This document shows, one piece after another, positions 15,596 to 25,750 of a stretch of 53,811 nt of DNA. A program made the position numbers and the translations under genes. The DNA lies in contig JBAXJR010000014.1 of the NCBI GenBank assembly GCA_037137755.1, forward strand, positions 1 through 53,811. The letters run 5' to 3'. Source of the stretch: Methanomicrobiales archaeon (lineage in GTDB: Archaea > Halobacteriota > Methanomicrobia > Methanomicrobiales > Methanospirillaceae). Below the pieces are notes generated by a model. That model searched no databases. It was not told where the DNA came from and worked only from the letters and a program-made list of their open reading frames with translations. The first letter of the stretch is position 1; each line of letters opens with the position of its first letter.

Positions 15596-16431
15596 CAACG
15601 GTTATATTTGCGGAGCGTCAGGAACCCGGCAACTCCAAGGCCTGCTATAATCCCTACCACGGGGGCCCCGGATTTAGTCGGGGTTGGTACCGGTGTTTTT
15701 GTCTGCACAGGTCGGGGTGTGGTCGGAGTCGGCGTGAACATGAGTGTTCCTTCCGTAGTGACGACCGGGACGGGAGTCACCGCGGCTTTTACAGCAAACG
15801 TCTTTTCCCCGATATACCCGGTTAAGTCTGCAAAACGTACATTATAGTTACCCGGTTCATCTACGGGAATATTTTGTGAGAAGTACCCGTCCTGGTTTCC
15901 ACCCCGGGTCGCCGTTGCAATATACGCCGGCCCGAATACCCTCCCAAGAGGGCCGATTACATCAATTTTCACACCTGAGTTACCTGCCTGTGAAATATAC
16001 CCTTCAATAAGGAGTGCATTTGGAATGACCTGGTTGACCGGGCTGGTGATATGGAGCAGATCTGAGCGGTCAACCAGCTCGACTACCTTGATTGTCACGG
16101 AATCTGAACTGAGTTTGTCCTGGTAATCCCCGCGGGGGACTGCTTCCACTTTATACATGCCACCTTTTAAGCCGGTTGTTTCGAAAACGATGTTAAAGTT
16201 TTTATCCTCCCCAATCGTCACCGGAACATTGCTAACCAGGTTTGAGGTCTGACCCGAACTGGAAAATGACAGGTCAAGTGTTGTCCCTGCCGGAAACGTG
16301 GTCGTCCCCGTTACCGGGAGGGGGGCACCAACCGGGAGTTTCGCGGGACAATCAATGGTAAGCACATATGCAGATGCCGTACCGACAATGCAGGCCATCA
16401 CGAGTAATACAATTATTGCAATCTTTTTCAT
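15595..16431 (-). CDS. Secreted cell-surface protein with a C-terminal archaeal sorting/TM anchor
   Basis: Signal peptide MKKIAIIVLLVMACIVGTASA, beta-rich domains, P/T linker, TPTKSG + TM + RK tail. Confidence 0.8.
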   Translation of the reverse strand: MKKIAIIVLLVMACIVGTASAYVLTIDCPAKLPVGAPLPVTGTTTFPAGTTLDLSFSSSGQTSNLVSNVPVTIGEDKNFNIVFETTGLKGGMYKVEAVPRGDYQDKLSSDSVTIKVVELVDRSDLLHITSPVNQVIPNALLIEGYISQAGNSGVKIDVIGPLGRVFGPAYIATATRGGNQDGYFSQNIPVDEPGNYNVRFADLTGYIGEKTFAVKAAVTPVPVVTTEGTLMFTPTPTTPRPVQTKTPVPTPTKSGAPVVGIIAGLGVAGFLTLRKYNR

Positions 16432-16591
16432 AGTAATCAGGTGGCATTACGAGGGTAAATGGTTTCTGGAAGTTTTCATTCACCGTTTTTATTGTCCTCA
16501 TATAGGGGGTAAATTTTGCAGGCCAGCCAGGCTGGGTATTATAAATGAACTCCGTAAAAAATGGAGCAGGCCTTGGGGCCTATAATCAGGA

Positions 16592-17197
16592 TCAGCACAT
16601 CCCGATATAATTGGACAGAAGCCGGAGCCCTTTAATACCGCTCTTTTCCGGGTGGAACTGGACCCCAAAGACATTGCCGTTATGGATCGTCGAGGCAAAA
16701 CCGCATATGTATTCCGTCGTCGTCAGGGTGTATTCAGGGAGGGTGTCCGCGTAATAGGAGTGGACAAAATACATGAACTCCTCCGTTGGAAAGCCGGCAA
16801 AGAGGGGATGATCAGGTTGTTCCAGGTGCACCTGGTTCCAGCCCATGTGGGGTACCTTGTACCCGGGCCGGTGTGGAAATTTCCTGACGGTCCCGGGAAC
16901 AAGGGAAAGCCCCTTGTGAAGCCCGTGTTCCTCGGAAAATTCCATCAGCATCTGCATTCCAAGGCATATCCCGAGCAGCGGTACATCCCTGGAACTTCCG
17001 ACAACTGCATCACGGAGCTCACCGAGCTGGTCCATACCCTCACGGAAAGCCCCGACCCCGGGGAGGACTATCCCGTCAGCTGAGGCAATCTCGCCTGCAT
17101 CTGCCGTGATAACCGGTGAAGCACCCGCCTTCTCAAGGCCTTTCATAACACTTCTCAGGTTACCAAGCCCGTAATCAACAATTGCTATCTTCTTCAT
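16592..17197 (-). CDS. hisH: Imidazole glycerol phosphate synthase glutaminase subunit
   Basis: DYGLGNL, LPGVGAF, GICLGMQ, PHMGWN, YFVHSY, QFHPEKS. Confidence 0.97.
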   Translation of the reverse strand: MKKIAIVDYGLGNLRSVMKGLEKAGASPVITADAGEIASADGIVLPGVGAFREGMDQLGELRDAVVGSSRDVPLLGICLGMQMLMEFSEEHGLHKGLSLVPGTVRKFPHRPGYKVPHMGWNQVHLEQPDHPLFAGFPTEEFMYFVHSYYADTLPEYTLTTTEYICGFASTIHNGNVFGVQFHPEKSGIKGLRLLSNYIGMC

Positions 17198-18623
17198 CAG
17201 GCATTTCTCCTTCGCCGTCCATGCCGGAGGCCGGTACAACGATCCCCTGGTCTTTTTTTCGCCACCTGCTCTCCGTAATCCACTCAGGGGGCAGACCGTG
17301 GTTGTTTCGCCATTCCTCGAGACGGTTATTCCATGACTGCATCAGTGCAGGATGGTTGTTCCCTATCTCTTCAAGCACTGCAATATCACTGGACGGGCAC
17401 ATAAAGCAGCCGATCCGGTCCAGGCCCTGCTCGTAGAGGACATTGTAAGGCCCTTTCTCCCGGAAAATGTATAACCATACATGCATGGCAGTCCAGTTCT
17501 GGATCGGTGCCGCAGAGAGCTGGTTCCGGACATTGCTGTTCCGCCAGACACGGCCTGATGTTGCCCGCTTAAATGACTCGTATTTCCGCTGGCCAATGAA
17601 TGAGAGGCATTCACCCCATTTCTCTGATATCGCACGTTTAACCGGTTTCAGCTTGCAGACACCACAGCACCAGCGGTAGTCAACTGCAGGCGGCCCCTGC
17701 CGGGCAAACGTCTCCCAGAACTCCTTCTCACCGGAGCACCTGACCGCTGTAAGCCCGTAATGTTCAATCGTCTTCTCCACGCACTCGTAGGTCTCGGGGA
17801 ACTCAAGGCCCGTGTCAGCAAACAGGATTGGCACGTTACCAATCGCTTTCATTACCACGAGAAGCGTGGCAAGGCTGTCCTTGCCACCTGAGAACGAGAC
17901 ATTGACCGGGAGAGGGTTTCTCTCCATGACCTCGTGGATAAACTGAACAGATGCAGCCTCGGCTTTTTCAAGTACAACTGCGTTCGCCCTGACCGCTTCT
18001 TCCCAGGTCGCAACCCCTGGTATTACATCAGACCGTACATTTCTTCGCATCCGGACAATTGCACCACGGTCCATCGATTCTGCCGTAGCGGCATCTACCT
18101 TCGCCCTTCCGACACCGGCACACTCACCTGAACGGGTGAAGACAAAGACCTCGTCACCTGCACTCACCGAAGGATCAATATGTACAAGTCCCGGCCGGAG
18201 CACACTTGCTCCTTCCCGGAGTGATGTGAGGGCACCGTCATCGACAATTACAAAACGCTTCGTTGGTTTTAACAATTCTGCAGCTTCAGGCCGGGGTATC
18301 GGTTCCCATGCCCGGATTTTTGGCATATACCGAATTGACCCGACAACTGCACCCGCCACTACGATCTCCTCCATCCGGTCCGGGTCAGGTACTTTATTGA
18401 GGAGGGCAATGTGACCAGGCGGGATTAATGGGGCCCCGAAATGGTCCGAAAAAACCCGGTTAACGAGATCGATATCATAGGTAAACGCCGGCCGGGCATC
18501 CCCAGGTGGTGTAACCGGCACTTCGCGGGTAAATGCCCCGCAGGCACACTGGCGCGACATGACCGGTGTATGGCATGAATCACACCAGCGGAGGAGGATC
18601 TTTCCAAGGTAAGACGAGGGCAT
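17175..18623 (-). CDS. PAPS/APS-reductase-family protein with Zn ribbon and PUA domain
   Basis: WCDSC..CACG; PUA (VDDGA..SLREGASVLRPG); PP-loop SFSGGKDS; WCCGVCK; RIGCFMCP. Confidence 0.88.
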   Translation of the reverse strand: MPSSYLGKILLRWCDSCHTPVMSRQCACGAFTREVPVTPPGDARPAFTYDIDLVNRVFSDHFGAPLIPPGHIALLNKVPDPDRMEEIVVAGAVVGSIRYMPKIRAWEPIPRPEAAELLKPTKRFVIVDDGALTSLREGASVLRPGLVHIDPSVSAGDEVFVFTRSGECAGVGRAKVDAATAESMDRGAIVRMRRNVRSDVIPGVATWEEAVRANAVVLEKAEAASVQFIHEVMERNPLPVNVSFSGGKDSLATLLVVMKAIGNVPILFADTGLEFPETYECVEKTIEHYGLTAVRCSGEKEFWETFARQGPPAVDYRWCCGVCKLKPVKRAISEKWGECLSFIGQRKYESFKRATSGRVWRNSNVRNQLSAAPIQNWTAMHVWLYIFREKGPYNVLYEQGLDRIGCFMCPSSDIAVLEEIGNNHPALMQSWNNRLEEWRNNHGLPPEWITESRWRKKDQGIVVPASGMDGEGEMPDEEDSNC

Positions 18624-18744
18624 TCTCGCGTAATATTCGAAGCAGGAGGATAAATATGGAGAGGATCCTGCAATTAAAACGGGGTAGGGCCAGAAGAAAG
18701 GGTCGCGGTTATTCTTATCTCTTCACCGGCCAACATTACCTTTT

Positions 18745-19602
18745 ATGTTTGAATCCGTGTCAAGGAGTTTTTCCCTCATTAAGGAAAGCTGGAAGGTCCT
18801 TTCCCTGGATAAGGAGATCCTCCTCTTCCCGGTGCTTTCCGGGATCGCATTATTATTCATCCTGCTGTCATTTGTGATACCCGCCCTGTTCCTGGGTTAT
18901 TTCCAGGAAGGGGTACCGGCCCTTTCGGGGGGTGTCCTCCTCGTGGGTCTCTTCCTCTTCTACCTGCTCTGTTACTTCGTCGTGATTTATTTCAATACCG
19001 CATTGATCACCTGCGCAAGAATGCGCCTGACAGGTGGAAACCCGGTGTTTATGGATGGTATCAGGAACGCAAACGCTCATCTCGTACCCATATTTATCTG
19101 GGCGATGATCTCAGCAACAATCGGGCTTGTCCTTAATTTACTCCAGGAACGGGCAGGTTTTATCGGGCAGATAGTATTCGGGCTTATCGGGGCTGCGTGG
19201 AGCCTGATCACGTACTTTGCAATCCCGGTGATGATTTTTGAGGAAAAAGGGCCTGTGGAGGCGATAAAGCAATCCGCCTCGCTGTTCCGCAAGACCTGGG
19301 GGGAGACCCTTGTCGGCCAGGTGTCAATCACGATCGTATTTGTACTTCTCGGTATTGCTGGCTTAATCCCGGTTTTCCTTGCCCTGATGTCCGGAATTTT
19401 CCCATTGTTCCTCGTTTTGCTTGCGGTTTTCATAGTCTACCTTGCAATACTGATGGTGATCGGATCGAGCCTGCAGGGCGTATTTAATACTGCACTCTAT
19501 CTCTATGCAACAACAGGGAATGTACCGGAGGCCTATACAAAAGAACTGATTGAAAATGCATTTGCCCCAAAACCGGTTGGCGGCATGAGAGGAAATATTT
19601 AA
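18745..19602 (+). CDS. Multi-pass membrane protein (DUF6159-like)
   Basis: About 6 hydrophobic helices; SWKVL, PVMIFE.KGP.EAIK.S..LFRKTWGE, LYLYA motifs. Confidence 0.7.
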   Translation: MFESVSRSFSLIKESWKVLSLDKEILLFPVLSGIALLFILLSFVIPALFLGYFQEGVPALSGGVLLVGLFLFYLLCYFVVIYFNTALITCARMRLTGGNPVFMDGIRNANAHLVPIFIWAMISATIGLVLNLLQERAGFIGQIVFGLIGAAWSLITYFAIPVMIFEEKGPVEAIKQSASLFRKTWGETLVGQVSITIVFVLLGIAGLIPVFLALMSGIFPLFLVLLAVFIVYLAILMVIGSSLQGVFNTALYLYATTGNVPEAYTKELIENAFAPKPVGGMRGNI

Positions 19603-19670
19603 AAAAAACTGGTTTCCCCTGTTACAGGGGACTCTTCATTTTTCTCCAGATTTTTTTTATTTTAATCCCC

Positions 19671-19988
19671 CTAACGGTTCCGGCACCGTGTCAGGTTCCA
19701 GCGGACGAATGAGTAGAGGGCTATCACAATGATGGCAATGGATATCACCGAGATTATATAAGCCCCGGGCTCGATTCCACAGGTAATATTTCCGTTCGAC
19801 CGGGCAGCAAGGTCCGCACACCCGGATGGTATTGCAATGAGGAGATACCATACGATGTAAATATTCACCGCAACAACCGCGGTAAGGGCCAGTGATACCG
19901 GGACCAGCCAGTCAGTCTCGCCCCCCCGGGGTGAGACGCCACAGAGGGGCTCCTTCGTGGGATCATCCGTTCTATCGGGATCTGTCAT
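19671..19988 (-). CDS. Small hypothetical two-TM membrane protein
   Basis: Two hydrophobic helices flanking a Cys-containing loop; start at MTDPD inferred. Confidence 0.55.
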   Translation of the reverse strand: MTDPDRTDDPTKEPLCGVSPRGGETDWLVPVSLALTAVVAVNIYIVWYLLIAIPSGCADLAARSNGNITCGIEPGAYIISVISIAIIVIALYSFVRWNLTRCRNR

Positions 19989-20308
19989 CAGGCATATATC
20001 ATCAGGCAAGACGGATAAATATCGTGGGGTCACTTCAGAACATTCAGGGCGGTGATAAACCCGCCGGAGTATCCCCTGTCTGGCAGGACGTGATAGTACA
20101 ATTCCCTGTATCACATTCAAATCACATACCCAGATGTTAAGAAAGGAAAATATCCGATTAAATGAGGTCCACCCCATTCTGGCATTTTATCCTCACTTTA
20201 TTGAAAAAAATCAGGTAATGGAAATGCTTTTTTTTAATCCTGCTATCAGGGCACTAAACGGGAATCAGGTGCGTATTTCAAGTTAAAACGGTTGCAATGC
20301 AAGTAATG

Positions 20309-20316
20309 TTTATATA
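20309..20316 (+). promoter_or_regulatory. TATA box of the micro-ORF
   Basis: TTTATATA in an AT-rich tract ~55 bp upstream of ATG 20368. Confidence 0.6.
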
Positions 20317-20367
20317 GATATAAAATAACAAATTTTAAATATAGAAATAAAAGGAGGTGGACTGACA

Positions 20368-20457
20368 ATGGCTGGGATAGCAAAAAAACCCGAGGCAAAG
20401 AAACCTTCGGCAAAAAAGCCGGAGGCCAAGAAACCTGCCGCGAAAGCCAAAAAATAA
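20368..20457 (+). CDS. 29-aa Lys/Ala/Pro-rich histone-H1-like micro-protein MAGIAKKPEAKKPSAKKPEAKKPAAKAKK
   Basis: Strong RBS AAGGAGGTG 8 nt upstream, TATA box, downstream T-rich terminator; AKKPx repeats with synonymous third-position variation; below the ORF-track cutoff. Confidence 0.8.
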   Translation: MAGIAKKPEAKKPSAKKPEAKKPAAKAKK

Positions 20458-21170
20458 CGAATATTTCATTCTCTCTCTATTTTTTCGTCGCTTTTTTCAG
20501 GTTTTACCGTTGTTATAAGCTGTTTTCCCGGAGATGGTTACATTACGGGCGATGCTGTTTTAACAAAGATTAAGATCATGGCAGAAAAAATGGGGAAGTC
20601 CCGGGAAAGCATGGCGTTATGGATTTTTTATTATTGGCCTGAAGAATCGATCTTTTCAGCGGATCCCGACAGCGGGCTGGATAAGCGGATTAGGGGGGGA
20701 TAACTGCAGTAAATATAAAAAAGGGTTACATAACCCCCAACCGCTCCAACAATAGCCGGGTGATCCCGGGGAGTTGTTATTCCCCTGCCTTGGAATGCTA
20801 CTCCAATAATCCGGCCGGTTTTTACCTATCGACGTAACATGATTTCCTCATGAGAAGGGATCCACTGTGCCTGTGGAACAGGAATTAGCTGTAAGTCAAA
20901 ATGCATCGGTGCACCCCGCTGCAAGCAACGCGGCATGATTCGCACCGCTGCCTTGTGGTATGGTTGGTTGTGATAGTCTATGGGTTCACCCACAGTTACA
21001 TTGCCTTCCTTTTCCCCGCAGTAAGCTGCGGAGTATACGGATAAAATAAAAAACGGCAGATCGTATCTGGTTAGGTATTAAATCTCATAATTATCCACAT
21101 TTCATCTGTCGGAGCACAATAATCTATTTATAATCCTGCCGCACAATTGCACCTTATTATTGGTGAAATT

Positions 21171-21719
21171 ATGTCTGAAACATATTCTTCAAATCCCATG
21201 TTGCCAACGGGTGCTATGCTCCCCTGGTGGCTCGTTCTTATCCAGGGTATTGTTGCCCTTATCCTTGGTTGTTCATTCCTCGCATTCCCATACCAGACAT
21301 TGTTCGTCTTTGTTGTTTTCGTGGGTGCATACTGGTTTATAAGTGGGATTTTCGCATTGATCAGTCTCGCGTACGACAAGAGTAACATGGGCTGGAAGAT
21401 CGTGGTCGGGCTGCTTGGTATCGTCGCAGGTATCCTCATAATGATGTACCCTTATTACAGCACGATCCTGTTACCTGCCATGCTGATCATCATCATCGGC
21501 GTCCTGGGGCTGATCATCGGTGGTATTACCCTTGCTCACGGGATTCGTGGAGGGGGATGGGGTGAGATCATCCTCGGCATCATGGGAATTATCTTCGGCA
21601 TAGTCCTGCTTGCAAAACCGCTCGTCGGCGCCCTTTTGCTTCCATACGTGCTCGGAATATTCGGTGTTATCCTTGGTATTGGTGCGATTGTCGCTGCATT
21701 CATGTGCCGGGGTAAATAA
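21171..21719 (+). CDS. HdeD/DUF308 family membrane protein
   Basis: WWLVLIQGIVALILG...P; six Gly-rich TMs; GGTGA RBS and TATTTATAA promoter upstream. Confidence 0.85.
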   Translation: MSETYSSNPMLPTGAMLPWWLVLIQGIVALILGCSFLAFPYQTLFVFVVFVGAYWFISGIFALISLAYDKSNMGWKIVVGLLGIVAGILIMMYPYYSTILLPAMLIIIIGVLGLIIGGITLAHGIRGGGWGEIILGIMGIIFGIVLLAKPLVGALLLPYVLGIFGVILGIGAIVAAFMCRGK

Positions 21720-21917
21720 CAAGTAACCATTTTTAAGAAAATGGAAAGCCGGACTCATTACGCAGATTCGAACTATCTGTCCGGGCAGATACCACAAAAG
21801 AGGTTCTACCTGATTGTAAGGTGTTCCGGATTAGAGAAGTAGTACTTATACCAATTGAGACATTTTTCGGGTTTTCCAATCGTCCTTTTAAAAATATAAT
21901 CTTTCGTGGTTGCCACG

Positions 21918-22160
21918 CTAGCTGGTAAGCCAGTCCGGGTTTTCAGATAAAAATACTTTTTCTTTCTGCTCCAGCTCTTCCGGGCTCAACGAAGCCGACA
22001 TACAGATACAGAGGTGTTCAATATAACACCCCGATGAAAAATGGCCAGGCCGTTCATTTTTCATACAGGTACCATACATTTGCTTTTCAAAATCGTGATA
22101 TACCTGCTCTTTGCCCTCTTTCCGGGCAATCTCCACTGCTTCCCTCCATGATTCAGCCAT
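21918..22160 (-). CDS. Hypothetical protein, 80 aa
   Basis: Isolated ORF with a GAGGG RBS; four Cys; no recognised family. Confidence 0.7.
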   Translation of the reverse strand: MAESWREAVEIARKEGKEQVYHDFEKQMYGTCMKNERPGHFSSGCYIEHLCICMSASLSPEELEQKEKVFLSENPDWLTS

Positions 22161-22381
22161 GTAATTCCCTCGTATACCTAAATGGGATGTACGGGATAAA
22201 AAAACAGCAGTAACTACCCATCACTATAATTTTTGAAGGGGTTGTTAACAGGGTTCCTGTTTTCCCATTGTTTATACGTAATAATGCCCCGTATCCACGA
22301 GGATAAAACCAAAATATTACAACCTGAAAACATCATACGGATAGTGATTCATCTGATATCGTTAAACCGGGGAGCTGTGAA

Positions 22382-23428
22382 ATGAAACTATCATCCCGGA
22401 GCTGGTTTGCTCTCTCGATCCTTTTCAGCCTGACAGTTATTGTCATCGTATTTATTACAACGTTTAACGAAGAAACGATAAGTTCTATCCTCAATTTCAA
22501 TGTCTTCTTCCTGCTCCTTGCCATCGCATTCCGTCTTTTGGCCCTGTTAATCTGGGGATTACGGATCCAGGTGATGTCGGGGTCACTTGGCTACCGTGTA
22601 CCCCTCCCCCATTGTATAAACATGGTCCTTGCCGGGCTGCTCGCCGGTACTATCACCCCCGGACAAGCGGGCGGAGAGCCGGTGAGGGTACATGAGTTGT
22701 ACAGATCAGGGGTTAAACTGGGGGACGCCGCGGCTGTAGTTATTATGGAAAGGGTCCTGGACGGGGTGATTCTGACCGTCATGGGTATCATTCTCATGAC
22801 CCTGATGACCCGGTTTTTCTGGAACTCCTTCAGCCCGGGATTGTACTTACTGGTTATTATAGCCTGGATTCTGATGATCAGTTTCCTCGTCATTCCGGTT
22901 CTTGCAATCAGGTATCCTGAAATGACAAAGAAAGTACTGATGAAACTGGTAAACTGGCTGGTCCCAAAACTCTCCTGGTGGTCTTCATCACCCCAGACTC
23001 TCATAGAACTGGCAGACAGGGAGATTGATAACCTTTTCATGAGTATGGCCCGGTTTACCGGGAATGCACGAGTGGGCCTGCTTGGAGGTGGGATCACAAC
23101 CGGACTTTTCTGGGTCACGGAATTTCTGGTCGCTTCATTTATTCTGATGGGCCTTGGGCTCGGCCCGGCTGTTGTCGAATCATTTTTCTTCCAGATCCTC
23201 ATCGCGATCATTAATATGGTACCTCTCACCCCGGGATCTTCGGGGATCACCGAGCTCTCAACCACGTCATTGTATGCATTAATCATCCCTACCGGTATGA
23301 TTGGTATTTTTGTCCTGTTATGGCGATCTATCACATTTTATCTCAATATCATTCTCGGCGCCGTGGCGGGCCTCGCCATTTTCAAGAGGGAGATAGATCT
23401 GAGGAACATCGATGAAGGGGACCCATGA
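22382..23428 (+). CDS. Flippase-like / lysylphosphatidylglycerol synthase TM domain protein (UPF0104)
   Basis: ITPGQAGGEP, ERVLD, PLTPGSSGITE, LWRSITFY. Confidence 0.88.
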   Translation: MKLSSRSWFALSILFSLTVIVIVFITTFNEETISSILNFNVFFLLLAIAFRLLALLIWGLRIQVMSGSLGYRVPLPHCINMVLAGLLAGTITPGQAGGEPVRVHELYRSGVKLGDAAAVVIMERVLDGVILTVMGIILMTLMTRFFWNSFSPGLYLLVIIAWILMISFLVIPVLAIRYPEMTKKVLMKLVNWLVPKLSWWSSSPQTLIELADREIDNLFMSMARFTGNARVGLLGGGITTGLFWVTEFLVASFILMGLGLGPAVVESFFFQILIAIINMVPLTPGSSGITELSTTSLYALIIPTGMIGIFVLLWRSITFYLNIILGAVAGLAIFKREIDLRNIDEGDP

Positions 23429-23516
23429 AAAGGTATAAACTGCCGACAGTTACTGATCAGAAAAGAGCTTGTGCATGTGAATCAATACCACCAAAAAAAA
23501 AACGTTGAAATTTTTG

Positions 23517-24347
23517 TTACCTATCTTCCTCGGTTACGCTATAACTTTCAGAAATGCAGGTTATGGTTGATAAACCTCCTTGGTATTGCCATTTATTATT
23601 GGATTTTCCCGAAGGTGCGGGTGATACTGGTAGTACCCCTGGATCTGGTTTCTGATAGACCCGCTGTGTATAGGTAAACCTTTTAGAGACTCCTCCCTTG
23701 AGGACTATCCAGTACCATTCGTAGAGTGTTTTCCAGAATCCGAACTGCTCATATCTCCGGAAATCGAACCCGACTTGTAACCTTCGATTGAATACAACCT
23801 TCCCCTCTTTCCGCATCCGTGTCGCTACTTCCAGATCATCTCCGGCATCCATGATCCTGTACATACCTGCACGTTCAAGGGCATCATGCCGAAAAACGGT
23901 GTTGCAACCGAGTGTGTAGTAATAAAGCCGGGTAGTAGCCCCGAAACGCATGAGGGTATTAAAAAGCAGTACATATCGCCGGTTTTTAGGGGTTCGTTCA
24001 ATCGGTGTAACAGGGCCAAAGGCAAGGACAACGCGCTGGTCCTTAAACGAATGCATGATCTGTTCAACCCAGTCCGGTGCAACTACGCAGTCGGCATCGG
24101 TTGTAGCAACAATATCATACATTGCCCTGGCAAATCCATCGTTCCGTGCGCCAGGAACCCGCTCTGATTCCTGGATAAAAACATGATCTGCGTATTCTGC
24201 CGCGATCTCACGGGTGTTGTCTTTTGAATTTCCATCAACGACAATCAGCTCGTATGAGCTCCGCGGGAGGGTCTGATGAGACAGGGCCTCAAGACACCTC
24301 CGAATCGTTGCACCTTCATTGTAAGCCGGGATAATTATTGATATCAT
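23517..24347 (-). CDS. Glycosyltransferase family 2
   Basis: SIIIPAYNE, VVDGNSKDNT, GARN, TDAD, DDLE, RR motifs. Confidence 0.92.
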   Translation of the reverse strand: MISIIIPAYNEGATIRRCLEALSHQTLPRSSYELIVVDGNSKDNTREIAAEYADHVFIQESERVPGARNDGFARAMYDIVATTDADCVVAPDWVEQIMHSFKDQRVVLAFGPVTPIERTPKNRRYVLLFNTLMRFGATTRLYYYTLGCNTVFRHDALERAGMYRIMDAGDDLEVATRMRKEGKVVFNRRLQVGFDFRRYEQFGFWKTLYEWYWIVLKGGVSKRFTYTQRVYQKPDPGVLPVSPAPSGKSNNKWQYQGGLSTITCISESYSVTEEDR

Positions 24348-24688
24348 GGTCGCCAGGAGAATCACGGGAAGAACCCGGGAGATTATCAGTCCTAAAACTC
24401 TATGAAACTCAATATTTAAGAGATTTTCTAAATAATCCAGAATAAATGCAAAAATGGAAGTCGGATCACCATGCCGTTAAGCGGGGACCGGGGTAGTTGA
24501 GGTGTGTTTCGGAGTCCTGGGCTACAGAGGGGCTGTAATTAAGCAGCTATTTCATTATTGCGTCTTTTAACGCAGATGAACATCCCTTCCGGTATGGGTA
24601 CCAGGCCAGATGCATGGGTAGATCTGGAAAGCCGAACCGCATTCTTATTCAACTCCTCGTCCTATCTCTTCATACTCAGCTGACTGCC

Positions 24689-25750
24689 ATGTCACGACAA
24701 CGTCACAAGCTCTCGAACCGTGCAGGACAGCCCCCGGGAACTCTTCGCGTCAAGGGTGAAACGGGGGACGTTCCGGTTAAGATCACCGTTATAGACTACG
24801 ATGCCGCCCACTTCCAGGAAAAACAGGTACACCAGATAACTGAATGTTTCCCATTCAAGGACACTGACACAGTAACCTGGATCAATGTCGACGGTCTGGG
24901 AAACACGAATGTCATCGAAGAGTTAGGGAAATGCTTTACCATTCACCCGCTCATCCTGGAAGATCTCTTAAATACCGAGCAGCGCCCCAAGATGGAGGAC
25001 CTGGAGACCTACATCTACCTGAACCTGAAGATGCTTTCGTACCTCGAATCAGATATTGAGGTCAAGGTCGAGCACGTCAGCATGATTATCGGGTCGAATT
25101 TCCTGATTTCATTCCAGGAAGATATTGGAGATATCTTTGACCCCGTGCGGGAACGGATCCGGAAAGATGGCAGGATTCGTAAGTTTGGCCCGGATTACCT
25201 TGCGTACGCTCTGATCGACAGTATCGTTGACAATTATTTTGTAGTAATGGAAAAGCTCGAGGGCCGGGTTGAGGACCTGGAGGAAGAACTGGTCATCAAC
25301 CCGACACAGGACTCCCTCCATAAAATCAACCATCTGAAGAAGGATATGATATTTCTCAGGAAATCAGTCTGGCCGCTCCGTGAGGTCATCAATAACCTTG
25401 AAAGGTCAGAATCAGCGCTCATTAAAGAATCTACCACGATCTACCTGCGTGACGTCTATGATCACACGATCCAGGTGATCGATACCCTTGAGACATTCCG
25501 GGACATGGTATCCGGGATGATCGATATCTACCCTTCAGGCCTGAGCTATAAAATGAACGAAATTATGAAGGTGCTCACGCTGATTGCAACAATCTTCATC
25601 CCTCTCACCTTCGTAGTCGGGTTATATGGCATGAACTTCCGGAATATGCCTGAGATTGAATGGGAATATGGCTATTATTCGGTGCTGGTTATCATGGTGA
25701 TAATGGTAACAGTGATGCTTGCCTACTTCCGGAGAAAGAAGTGGATCTGA
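24689..25750 (+). CDS. corA: Magnesium/cobalt transporter CorA
   Basis: IHPLILED, QRPK, MNEIMKVLT, YGMNF, MPE, two C-terminal TMs, KKWI. Confidence 0.96.
   Translation: MSRQRHKLSNRAGQPPGTLRVKGETGDVPVKITVIDYDAAHFQEKQVHQITECFPFKDTDTVTWINVDGLGNTNVIEELGKCFTIHPLILEDLLNTEQRPKMEDLETYIYLNLKMLSYLESDIEVKVEHVSMIIGSNFLISFQEDIGDIFDPVRERIRKDGRIRKFGPDYLAYALIDSIVDNYFVVMEKLEGRVEDLEEELVINPTQDSLHKINHLKKDMIFLRKSVWPLREVINNLERSESALIKESTTIYLRDVYDHTIQVIDTLETFRDMVSGMIDIYPSGLSYKMNEIMKVLTLIATIFIPLTFVVGLYGMNFRNMPEIEWEYGYYSVLVIMVIMVTVMLAYFRRKKWI

Follow-up and report, generated by a model that had tools for sequence, protein, structure and literature searches.

A lysine-rich micro-protein gene of Methanoregula-type methanogens and its likeness to histone H1-like tails

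The PAKKA repeats of the mycobacterial proteins Ku and Hlp have been reported to interact with DNA and to promote end-joining (PMC3553676). In Pseudomonas, the H1-like KPAA-repeat protein AlgP was described on polyphosphate (polyP) granules, with the KPAA tail required for granule spacing and possibly tethering the granules to the chromosome (PMC9239181). H1-like proteins of kinetoplastids that consist of the Lys-rich C-terminal part only are reported to serve as linker histones, and an H1-like protein of Toxoplasma (TgH1-like) is reported to have both chromatin and ribosomal proteins as partners (PMC9769792). This report concerns a gene for a 29-residue micro-protein of comparable composition, located at 20368-20457 of a 53,811-nucleotide stretch of archaeal DNA (the window), which is contig C14 (JBAXJR010000014.1) of the source genome G000 (assembly GCA_037137755.1, Methanomicrobiales archaeon; 2.64 Mb, 106 contigs, 90.6% complete). 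A sequence-only reading of the window had picked out this gene and proposed for it a minimal chromatin or nucleic acid-condensing peptide. The analysis described here indicates that the micro-gene is very probably real and translated, and it leans, by a modest degree, toward a polyanion-binding polycation for which DNA or the nucleoid is the most likely target.

The micro-gene and the conservation of its peptide

The coding sequence (CDS), read directly on the plus strand, begins with an ATG at 20368-20370, ends with a TAA at 20455-20457, and specifies MAGIAKKPEAKKPSAKKPEAKKPAAKAKK, a peptide of 29 residues with 11 Lys, 2 Glu and a net charge of +9; orthologues, a pattern census and codon-position substitutions, all described below, also enter into its assignment. 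Upstream on the same strand are found a TATA box (TTTATATA, 20309-20316) with an A-rich stretch before it that resembles a transcription factor B recognition element (BRE), together a putative promoter; an AAAATAACAAA block (20322-20332) between the TATA box and the predicted transcription start, whose columns are mostly invariant in a 6-species alignment; and a Shine-Dalgarno (SD) sequence (AAGGAGGTG, 20351-20359) whose GGAGGTG is separated from the ATG by 8 nucleotides. The motif ATAAC recurs in the upstream regions of family loci. From the usual archaeal TATA-to-start distance, transcription would begin at about 20338-20342. Archaeal RNA polymerase is established to terminate at oligo-T, and two T6 runs beyond the stop codon (20480-20485 and 20492-20497, plus strand) are the likely terminator, with a predicted transcript of about 145-160 nucleotides. 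The sequence therefore holds what is looked for in an archaeal protein-coding transcription unit: TATA/BRE, SD spacing, ATG, stop and oligo-T, conserved in relatives. Each element of the complete stand-alone unit claimed by the sequence-only reading was found where it had been placed, the peptide has the length, Lys count and charge given there, and the synonymous codon differences among its repeats are exactly as described. Over 20380-20436, Tandem Repeats Finder returned a 15-nucleotide period (3.7 copies, 70% matches) and a 30-nucleotide period (1.9 copies, 88% matches).

Across the whole source genome there are 48 sites with GGAGGTG 5-9 nucleotides before an ATG, and at two of these, the micro-gene being one, TTTAWATA also occurs within 90 nucleotides before the ATG. 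The genes with a perfect SD are a mixed set, and a perfect SD alone is therefore no proof of high expression. The micro-gene frame is the sole stop-to-stop frame of at least 40 residues in this genome that has a Lys/Ala/Pro-rich 25-residue window. As a separate observation, a 45-residue Lys-rich open reading frame (ORF; MPTSKKQLVKLNQAKKVKAEELSKQ...) stands behind GAGGTGA on the minus strand of contig C2 (start 132417 of the reverse-complemented contig) and is a candidate small basic protein.

Protein and DNA searches of 40 relatives recovered copies in four congeners and in one other genus. The orthologue in congener G011 has 29 residues and is 83% identical, those of G008 and G009 have 28 residues and read MAGAAKKPAAKK[E/V]AAKPAAKKAAPKGKK, and the copy from the other genus (G014) reads MAEKKKTAAKKPEAKKPAAKKPAAKKK; the fourth congener, G001, is taken up later. 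In all four congeners the copy lies at the same site, downstream of the gene for the DUF6159 membrane protein (18745-19602 in the window). When 18700-23500 of the window was compared by blastn with the congeners' loci, G011 aligned over 20305-20457 at 85.6% identity, with 20029-20304 and 20458-21923 unaligned, and in G008, G009 and G001 only 20302-20458 aligned apart from the DUF6159 gene. Read from the alignment, 6 synonymous and 5 non-synonymous changes separate the CDSs of G000 and G011, each of the 11 Lys being retained, and TATA-like boxes of the orthologues align at an equal distance, about -60 from the ATG.

Wider conservation was assessed on 84 non-identical archaeal loci selected by a pattern that requires SD and ATG, a filter that all conservation statistics drawn from them share. 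These loci encode 56 distinct peptides of 24-33 residues, the length varying always in frame, with 10-13 Lys and a net charge of +7 to +13 (median +11). The family composition is 41% Lys, 36% Ala and 10% Pro, with almost no Arg and no aromatic residues; the KK-to-KK spacing is five in 153 of 217 cases, and 51 of the 56 distinct peptides have a C-terminal KKK. A TATA-like motif is found at -75..-40 in 83 of the 84 loci, and a run of at least five T follows the stop codon within 60 nucleotides in 81 (median offset 22 nucleotides). In five equal-length groups holding 47 CDSs, at least 24, 25 and 74 changes are required at the first, second and third codon positions. A Gly/Phe/Ala-rich antisense frame has its wobble positions on the same columns as the sense frame, so that this periodicity demonstrates coding constraint without deciding between the strands. 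The strand was assigned as sense from the SD, ATG, stop, promoter and terminator, which in the sense frame follow in the conserved order TATA, leader, SD, ATG, stop and oligo-T. The earlier claim that selection acts on the peptide, and that this is not a DNA microsatellite, is borne out by the orthologues, a family in at least 100 genomes, the in-frame length variation, the constant Lys count and the excess of position-3 substitutions. Homologous ORFs in relatives, which the sequence-only reading had named as its own test, were found both as same-site orthologues and in the family census.

Two small metatranscriptome contig sets, X16 and X18 (53 and 61 million letters), left 20214-20514 uncovered, and within 16000-25000 of the window they covered only 7 and 9 of 30 bins. 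Exact look-ups of family sequences in a collection of 15 billion proteins returned 0 of 14, with even the 112/116-residue paralogue absent, which agrees with the earlier description of the gene as unannotated but carries little weight, as very short proteins may never enter such collections. A word-index search among proteins of 23-74 residues gave no candidate for the 42-residue stop-to-stop frame, although the index may leave out low-complexity words. Full-text literature searches found no account of an archaeal micro-protein of this type, and the words 'lysine', 'basic' and 'disordered' do not occur in the main text of the Methanosarcina mazei small-proteome paper.

Distribution, loss and expansion

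With a profile built from five of the peptides, 30 of the 49 genomes sampled from genus g6 gave homologues of 26-33 residues. Each of the 24 small frames that a peptide-only profile recovered, with no SD in the query, has GGAGGTG 5-9 nucleotides before the ATG and T-rich sequence after. Two members of the profile itself (G008 and G009) were not recovered by the profile search, so that profile counts are lower bounds and exact patterns were used instead. The census pattern, GGAGGTG N5-9 ATGG N62-92 AARAAR TRR, matched 106 of 228 genomes of the family, and its reversed form, used as control, matched 5 genomes. By genus, matches occurred in 86 of 108 genomes of g6, 10 of 11 of g23, the one genome of g3 and 5 of 12 of g1, where one match (G005) is not this peptide; a match in one of two g27 genomes is a different peptide, and those in two of 25 g26 genomes are not this peptide.

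Outside the family, a 401-genome sample of the phylum gave similar peptides only in g15 of a sister family (MADKKKPAAKKPEEVKPE...), in 3 of the 12 genomes of that family. A stricter pattern, applied to Bacteria and Archaea with each species represented by one genome, hit 62 loci. The record titles of 59 of these name Methanoregula, Methanoregulaceae or Methanomicrobiales, for which reason the family is called Methanoregulaceae here; one is a false hit, and the remaining two come from bacterial metagenome-assembled genomes (Verrucomicrobiota and Nitrospiraceae) with analogous Lys/Ala ORFs of 26-29 residues, probably convergent with the archaeal family. The micro-protein family is lineage-restricted, occurring in Methanoregulaceae, in Methanoregula and a few neighbouring genera.

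Some further small ORFs were seen in these searches. The two bacterial ORFs (L137:401-505, minus strand, 29 residues; L150:401-496, plus strand, 26 residues) both stand behind GGAGGTG, and a GC-rich hairpin follows that of L137. Another conserved small ORF behind a perfect SD, starting MGIAKKVVAAKAVSGRRDDKK... and unrelated to the AKKP family, occurs in Methanoregula and in G014 (G125:C2:53795, G297:C3:528738, G350:C296:1686, G367:C14:20036 and G014:C1:1033983). In family f7 of the phylum (G699, G715, G739, G731, G667 and G408), an SD precedes small ORFs with much Lys, Glu and Gln, among them MAPKDQKKDDKKGAVKAPAKDQ... and MAKKEEQKKGAKAPEPAK...; these ORFs may be a different class of charged micro-proteins.

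The genes around the micro-gene vary by lineage. Upstream lies DUF6159 in g1. The neighbours in g6 are a small divergent membrane protein and an MnhG-like gene, and some genomes have a PAPS-reductase/PUA gene. Downstream, either a nitroreductase in convergent orientation or other genes are found, so that the micro-gene has no partner in an operon and is followed by no conserved gene. The unit itself is carried on a variable segment (20030-21045) that blastn found missing at the same site in close relatives. No Lys-rich ORF was found within 1.3 kb downstream of DUF6159 in five of five congeners examined, whose DUF6159 proteins are 81-91% identical to that of the window. The alignments show clean absences, of about 20025-21045 in G012 and G003 and of about 20030-21919 in G010, G004 and G007, and this presence/absence polymorphism among congeners, over 20025-21919, has a common left breakpoint near 20029. 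The DUF308 gene at 21147-21719 lies inside the stretch missing from G010, G004 and G007 and is also absent in G011, which keeps the micro-gene.

On the DUF6159 side of the micro-gene, a 168-residue ORF (19671-20177, minus strand) has a hydrophobic C-terminal half and no Pfam match. The protein is 70% identical to an ORF of G011; its DNA shows 75-82% identity over 19649-20029 in G011 and three congeners, and falls within a single long match of 78-85% identity in G010, G012 and G003. It is possibly a genuine gene for a small membrane protein, lying between the micro-gene and DUF6159.

Expansion of the family was seen in four Methanoregula genomes (G255, G096, G265 and G346), with forms of 94-129 residues. 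The 112-residue paralogue of G255 (L031:1240-1575, plus strand) has the family N-terminus (MAAAKKAAAKKPE...) and C-terminus (...KKAAPKKK) around repeats of the KKPVAKKVVA type, and scores 59 bits against Pfam HC2, where the cut-off is 40; the same genome has a normal short copy elsewhere. Among 116 family genomes, four loci score above the HC2 cut-off, all of them expanded forms from Methanoregula. The HC2-like long forms occur only in this genus, where the micro-gene also occurs, and no complementary distribution was seen.

Proposed function and rival explanations

The micro-protein would be a disordered, flexible polycation with a net charge of +9 and a five-residue KKxxx period, its sequence being of a kind predicted to be unable to fold. 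It would bind a cellular polyanion electrostatically and independently of sequence, with DNA as the first candidate, and could neutralize phosphate charge and bridge or compact the nucleoid beside tail-less histones, in the manner of the H1 C-terminal domain and the bacterial H1-like proteins. In an extended chain (about 3.4 Å per residue), the charge pairs would lie about 17 Å apart, roughly half a turn of B-DNA. The source genome has three histone-fold genes, the proteins of which are tail-less, and one Alba gene. MC1 was found neither there nor in the 116 family genomes (0/116), and no SET-domain methyltransferase was found in the source genome at its 90.6% completeness. By analogy, a chromatin role of the micro-protein is plausible. 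The more specific proposal, that it is a free 'histone tail' acting as a minimal linker-histone analogue in Methanoregula-type methanogens, with tail-less histones and without MC1, where it would neutralize DNA and bridge it along, or between, the stretches wrapped by histones and perhaps link DNA to polyP, is tentative and on balance doubtful. That it reflects adaptation to dilute, cation-poor peat and lake waters with scarce inorganic counter-ions is speculation; the hints of habitat are the labels 'lake water', 'freshwater' and 'sediment' of sequencing runs and record titles.

Several points weigh against the preferred interpretation, a polyanion-binding polycation, in addition to the filter shared by the 84 loci and the codon periodicity that fits either strand. 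The census pattern matched none of 50 genomes of g11 (0/19), g24 (0/17) and g7 (0/14), and a pattern relaxed by dropping the SD gave no comparable peptide in five near-complete genomes (of g11, g24, g7, g26 and g5). The micro-gene is dispensable and has been lost repeatedly. In G001 the orthologue encodes the same peptide as in G008 and G009 but the frame is broken by a 1-nucleotide deletion, and it is either a pseudogene or an indel or assembly error in a 5-contig assembly. PolyP is an equally available polyanion. Finally, metabolic enzymes also carry Lys/Ala tails, so that the motif is not peculiar to proteins of chromatin; the lineage uses it broadly, which weakens a chromatin-specific claim.

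Some details of these loci may be recorded here. In the G001 copy (L013, G001:C5:148084-148184) the deletion follows codon 5 and gives MAGAVRNR-stop, and the remainder can be read in a different frame, which lacks a start codon. One of the tailed enzymes, in G284 (L196:1498-2403, minus strand), resembles by eye a class-IV (branched-chain) aminotransferase with a Lys/Ala-rich C-terminal tail of about 85 residues, and similar aminotransferase-like frames of 324-395 residues with the tail are present in six other Methanoregula genomes. In G299 (L037:1-1587, minus strand), an HdrA-like FAD/4Fe-4S oxidoreductase has a Lys-rich N-terminal tail (MAEKKKTTTKKTETKKP...) resembling the G014 micro-protein and adjoins an HdrB-like CCG-domain gene; similar tailed HdrA-like proteins occur in G228 and G283. 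Fusion proteins as a 'Rosetta stone' clue to a chromatin role were uninformative, the Lys-rich tails being on HdrA-like and aminotransferase-like proteins.

Among the rival explanations, the one that survives best is an RNA- or ribosome-associated polycation, neutralizing rRNA or serving as an RNA chaperone in the manner of eL41, bS22 or the nucleolar fraction of the Toxoplasma H1-like protein, and even this is unlikely. A very small, basic peptide behind a strong SD and promoter would suit it, as would the association of TgH1-like with ribosomal proteins (PMC9769792). However, a patchy distribution (106 of 228 genomes) with deletion in close relatives is unlike the clade-wide presence of a core ribosomal component, the peptide is nearly free of Arg and lacks aromatic residues, its length is plastic up to the 112-residue expansion, and no ribosomal-protein model of Pfam or NCBIfam was matched.

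Less probable again is a polyP binder that organizes or tethers polyP granules, possibly to DNA, as proposed for the KPAA tail of AlgP, a protein that localizes to such granules and spaces them (PMC9239181). The source genome does encode PPK1 and four PPK2 genes carrying 6 PPK2 domains, but no neighbourhood link joins the micro-gene to the ppk genes, and the micro-protein is without a second domain that could tether.

A cis-acting leader peptide that senses lysine or translation, or a transcript that works as a small RNA with no role for its peptide, is highly improbable. The short ORF is rich in Lys codons, and pairing with the SD is conceivable for its 5' leader, which is strongly conserved (ATAACCCTTTCCGGTRGGAGGTG in Methanoregula). 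Yet oligo-T comes directly after the stop codon in 81 of the 84 loci, no conserved co-directional gene follows (the downstream genes are unconserved and often convergent), the peptide features are kept across indels, and no Rfam match was obtained at E<=1 except one chance-level hit outside the unit. No more credit is due to the suggestion that the plus strand holds no gene, only a chance ORF or the complement of a Gly/Phe/Ala-rich hydrophobic peptide (20310-20450, minus strand): two or three antisense frames are, by composition, stop-free across the CDS in all 84 loci and one of them fits the 24/25/74 pattern, but they have no conserved start (the first start varies in codon and position, giving ORFs of 1-103 residues, with an SD-like sequence before it in 3, 0 and 4 of the 84 loci for the three frames). 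All 24 small frames found without the SD, on the other hand, keep the SD, ATG and stop of the sense strand, and the sense frame has TATA upstream and oligo-T downstream.

If the micro-protein is made and binds DNA, as preferred here, then archaea with histone chromatin would possess a separately encoded, tunable, lysine-rich partner functionally equivalent to the tail of a eukaryotic linker histone, with a bearing on charge neutralization and higher-order compaction in archaeal chromatin. The gene also marks a systematic blind spot: roughly a hundred methanogen genomes, or more, carry it, its length is no greater than the limits of gene callers, and the trypsin of standard proteomics would cut its product to pieces. 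The repeated losses of the gene, together with the growth of some forms into HC2-like proteins of about 100 residues, offer a natural series on the birth and growth of low-complexity polycations.

Comparison with known systems

The likeness to the tails of H1, AlgP and HupB that had been proposed at the outset stands in composition, and extends likewise to HC2; the Lys/Ala/Pro-rich, disordered type of the linker histone H1/H5 C-terminal domain is matched by the family proportions given above. It does not extend to curated models, of which the 29-residue peptide passes none, only the 112-residue expanded paralogue passing Pfam HC2. Against that model (PF07382, gathering cut-off 40 bits), the window peptide gave no match at E<=10, and three relatives scored 13.8, 12.7 and 21.2 bits. 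The NCBIfam models NF038052 (Hc2) and NF038053 (H1-like) gave at best 13.9 and 13.3 bits, with a 33-residue relative, where the cut-offs are 135 and 80 bits, and the only NCBIfam match of the window peptide was at chance level, to a valine-tRNA ligase model. The winged-helix globular domain of linker histones H1/H5 is absent, the product being all KKxxx repeats with no Pfam domain. Judged by sequence, the micro-protein would be like the tails of H1, HC2 and AlgP without being a demonstrable member of those families, and it is apparently an undescribed, archaeal micro-version of the histone-H1-like polycations.

The small ribosomal proteins eL41, bS22 and bTHX share with the micro-protein a size class of 25-35 residues and an extreme positive charge. 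They are Arg-rich and universal or clade-wide, whereas the micro-protein is built of Lys, Ala and Pro, is patchy and dispensable, and matches no ribosomal model. Closer in composition are the linker histones that consist of a C-terminal domain only, in kinetoplastids, dinoflagellates and Toxoplasma (TgH1-like), which are also stand-alone, lysine-rich and without a winged helix, and which are reported to act beside core histones (PMC9769792). These proteins are eukaryotic, longer, and regulated by phosphorylation or ubiquitination, and theirs is a likeness without demonstrated homology to the micro-protein.

With the bacterial H1-like proteins (chlamydial Hc2, those of Burkholderia and Bordetella, and the KPAA tail of AlgP), the micro-protein shares Lys/Ala/Pro low complexity, short repeats and predicted disorder. 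Those proteins bind DNA electrostatically, and in the case of AlgP polyP too, and by analogy the micro-protein would bind likewise; it is 5-8 times shorter, archaeal and without any other domain, and the likeness may be one of convergent composition rather than common descent. In the PAKKA/AKKA tails of mycobacterial HupB (Hlp) and Ku the same five-residue period with a KK pair is found. There the repeats are appended to folded DNA-binding domains, whereas the micro-protein of the methanogens is the repeat alone.

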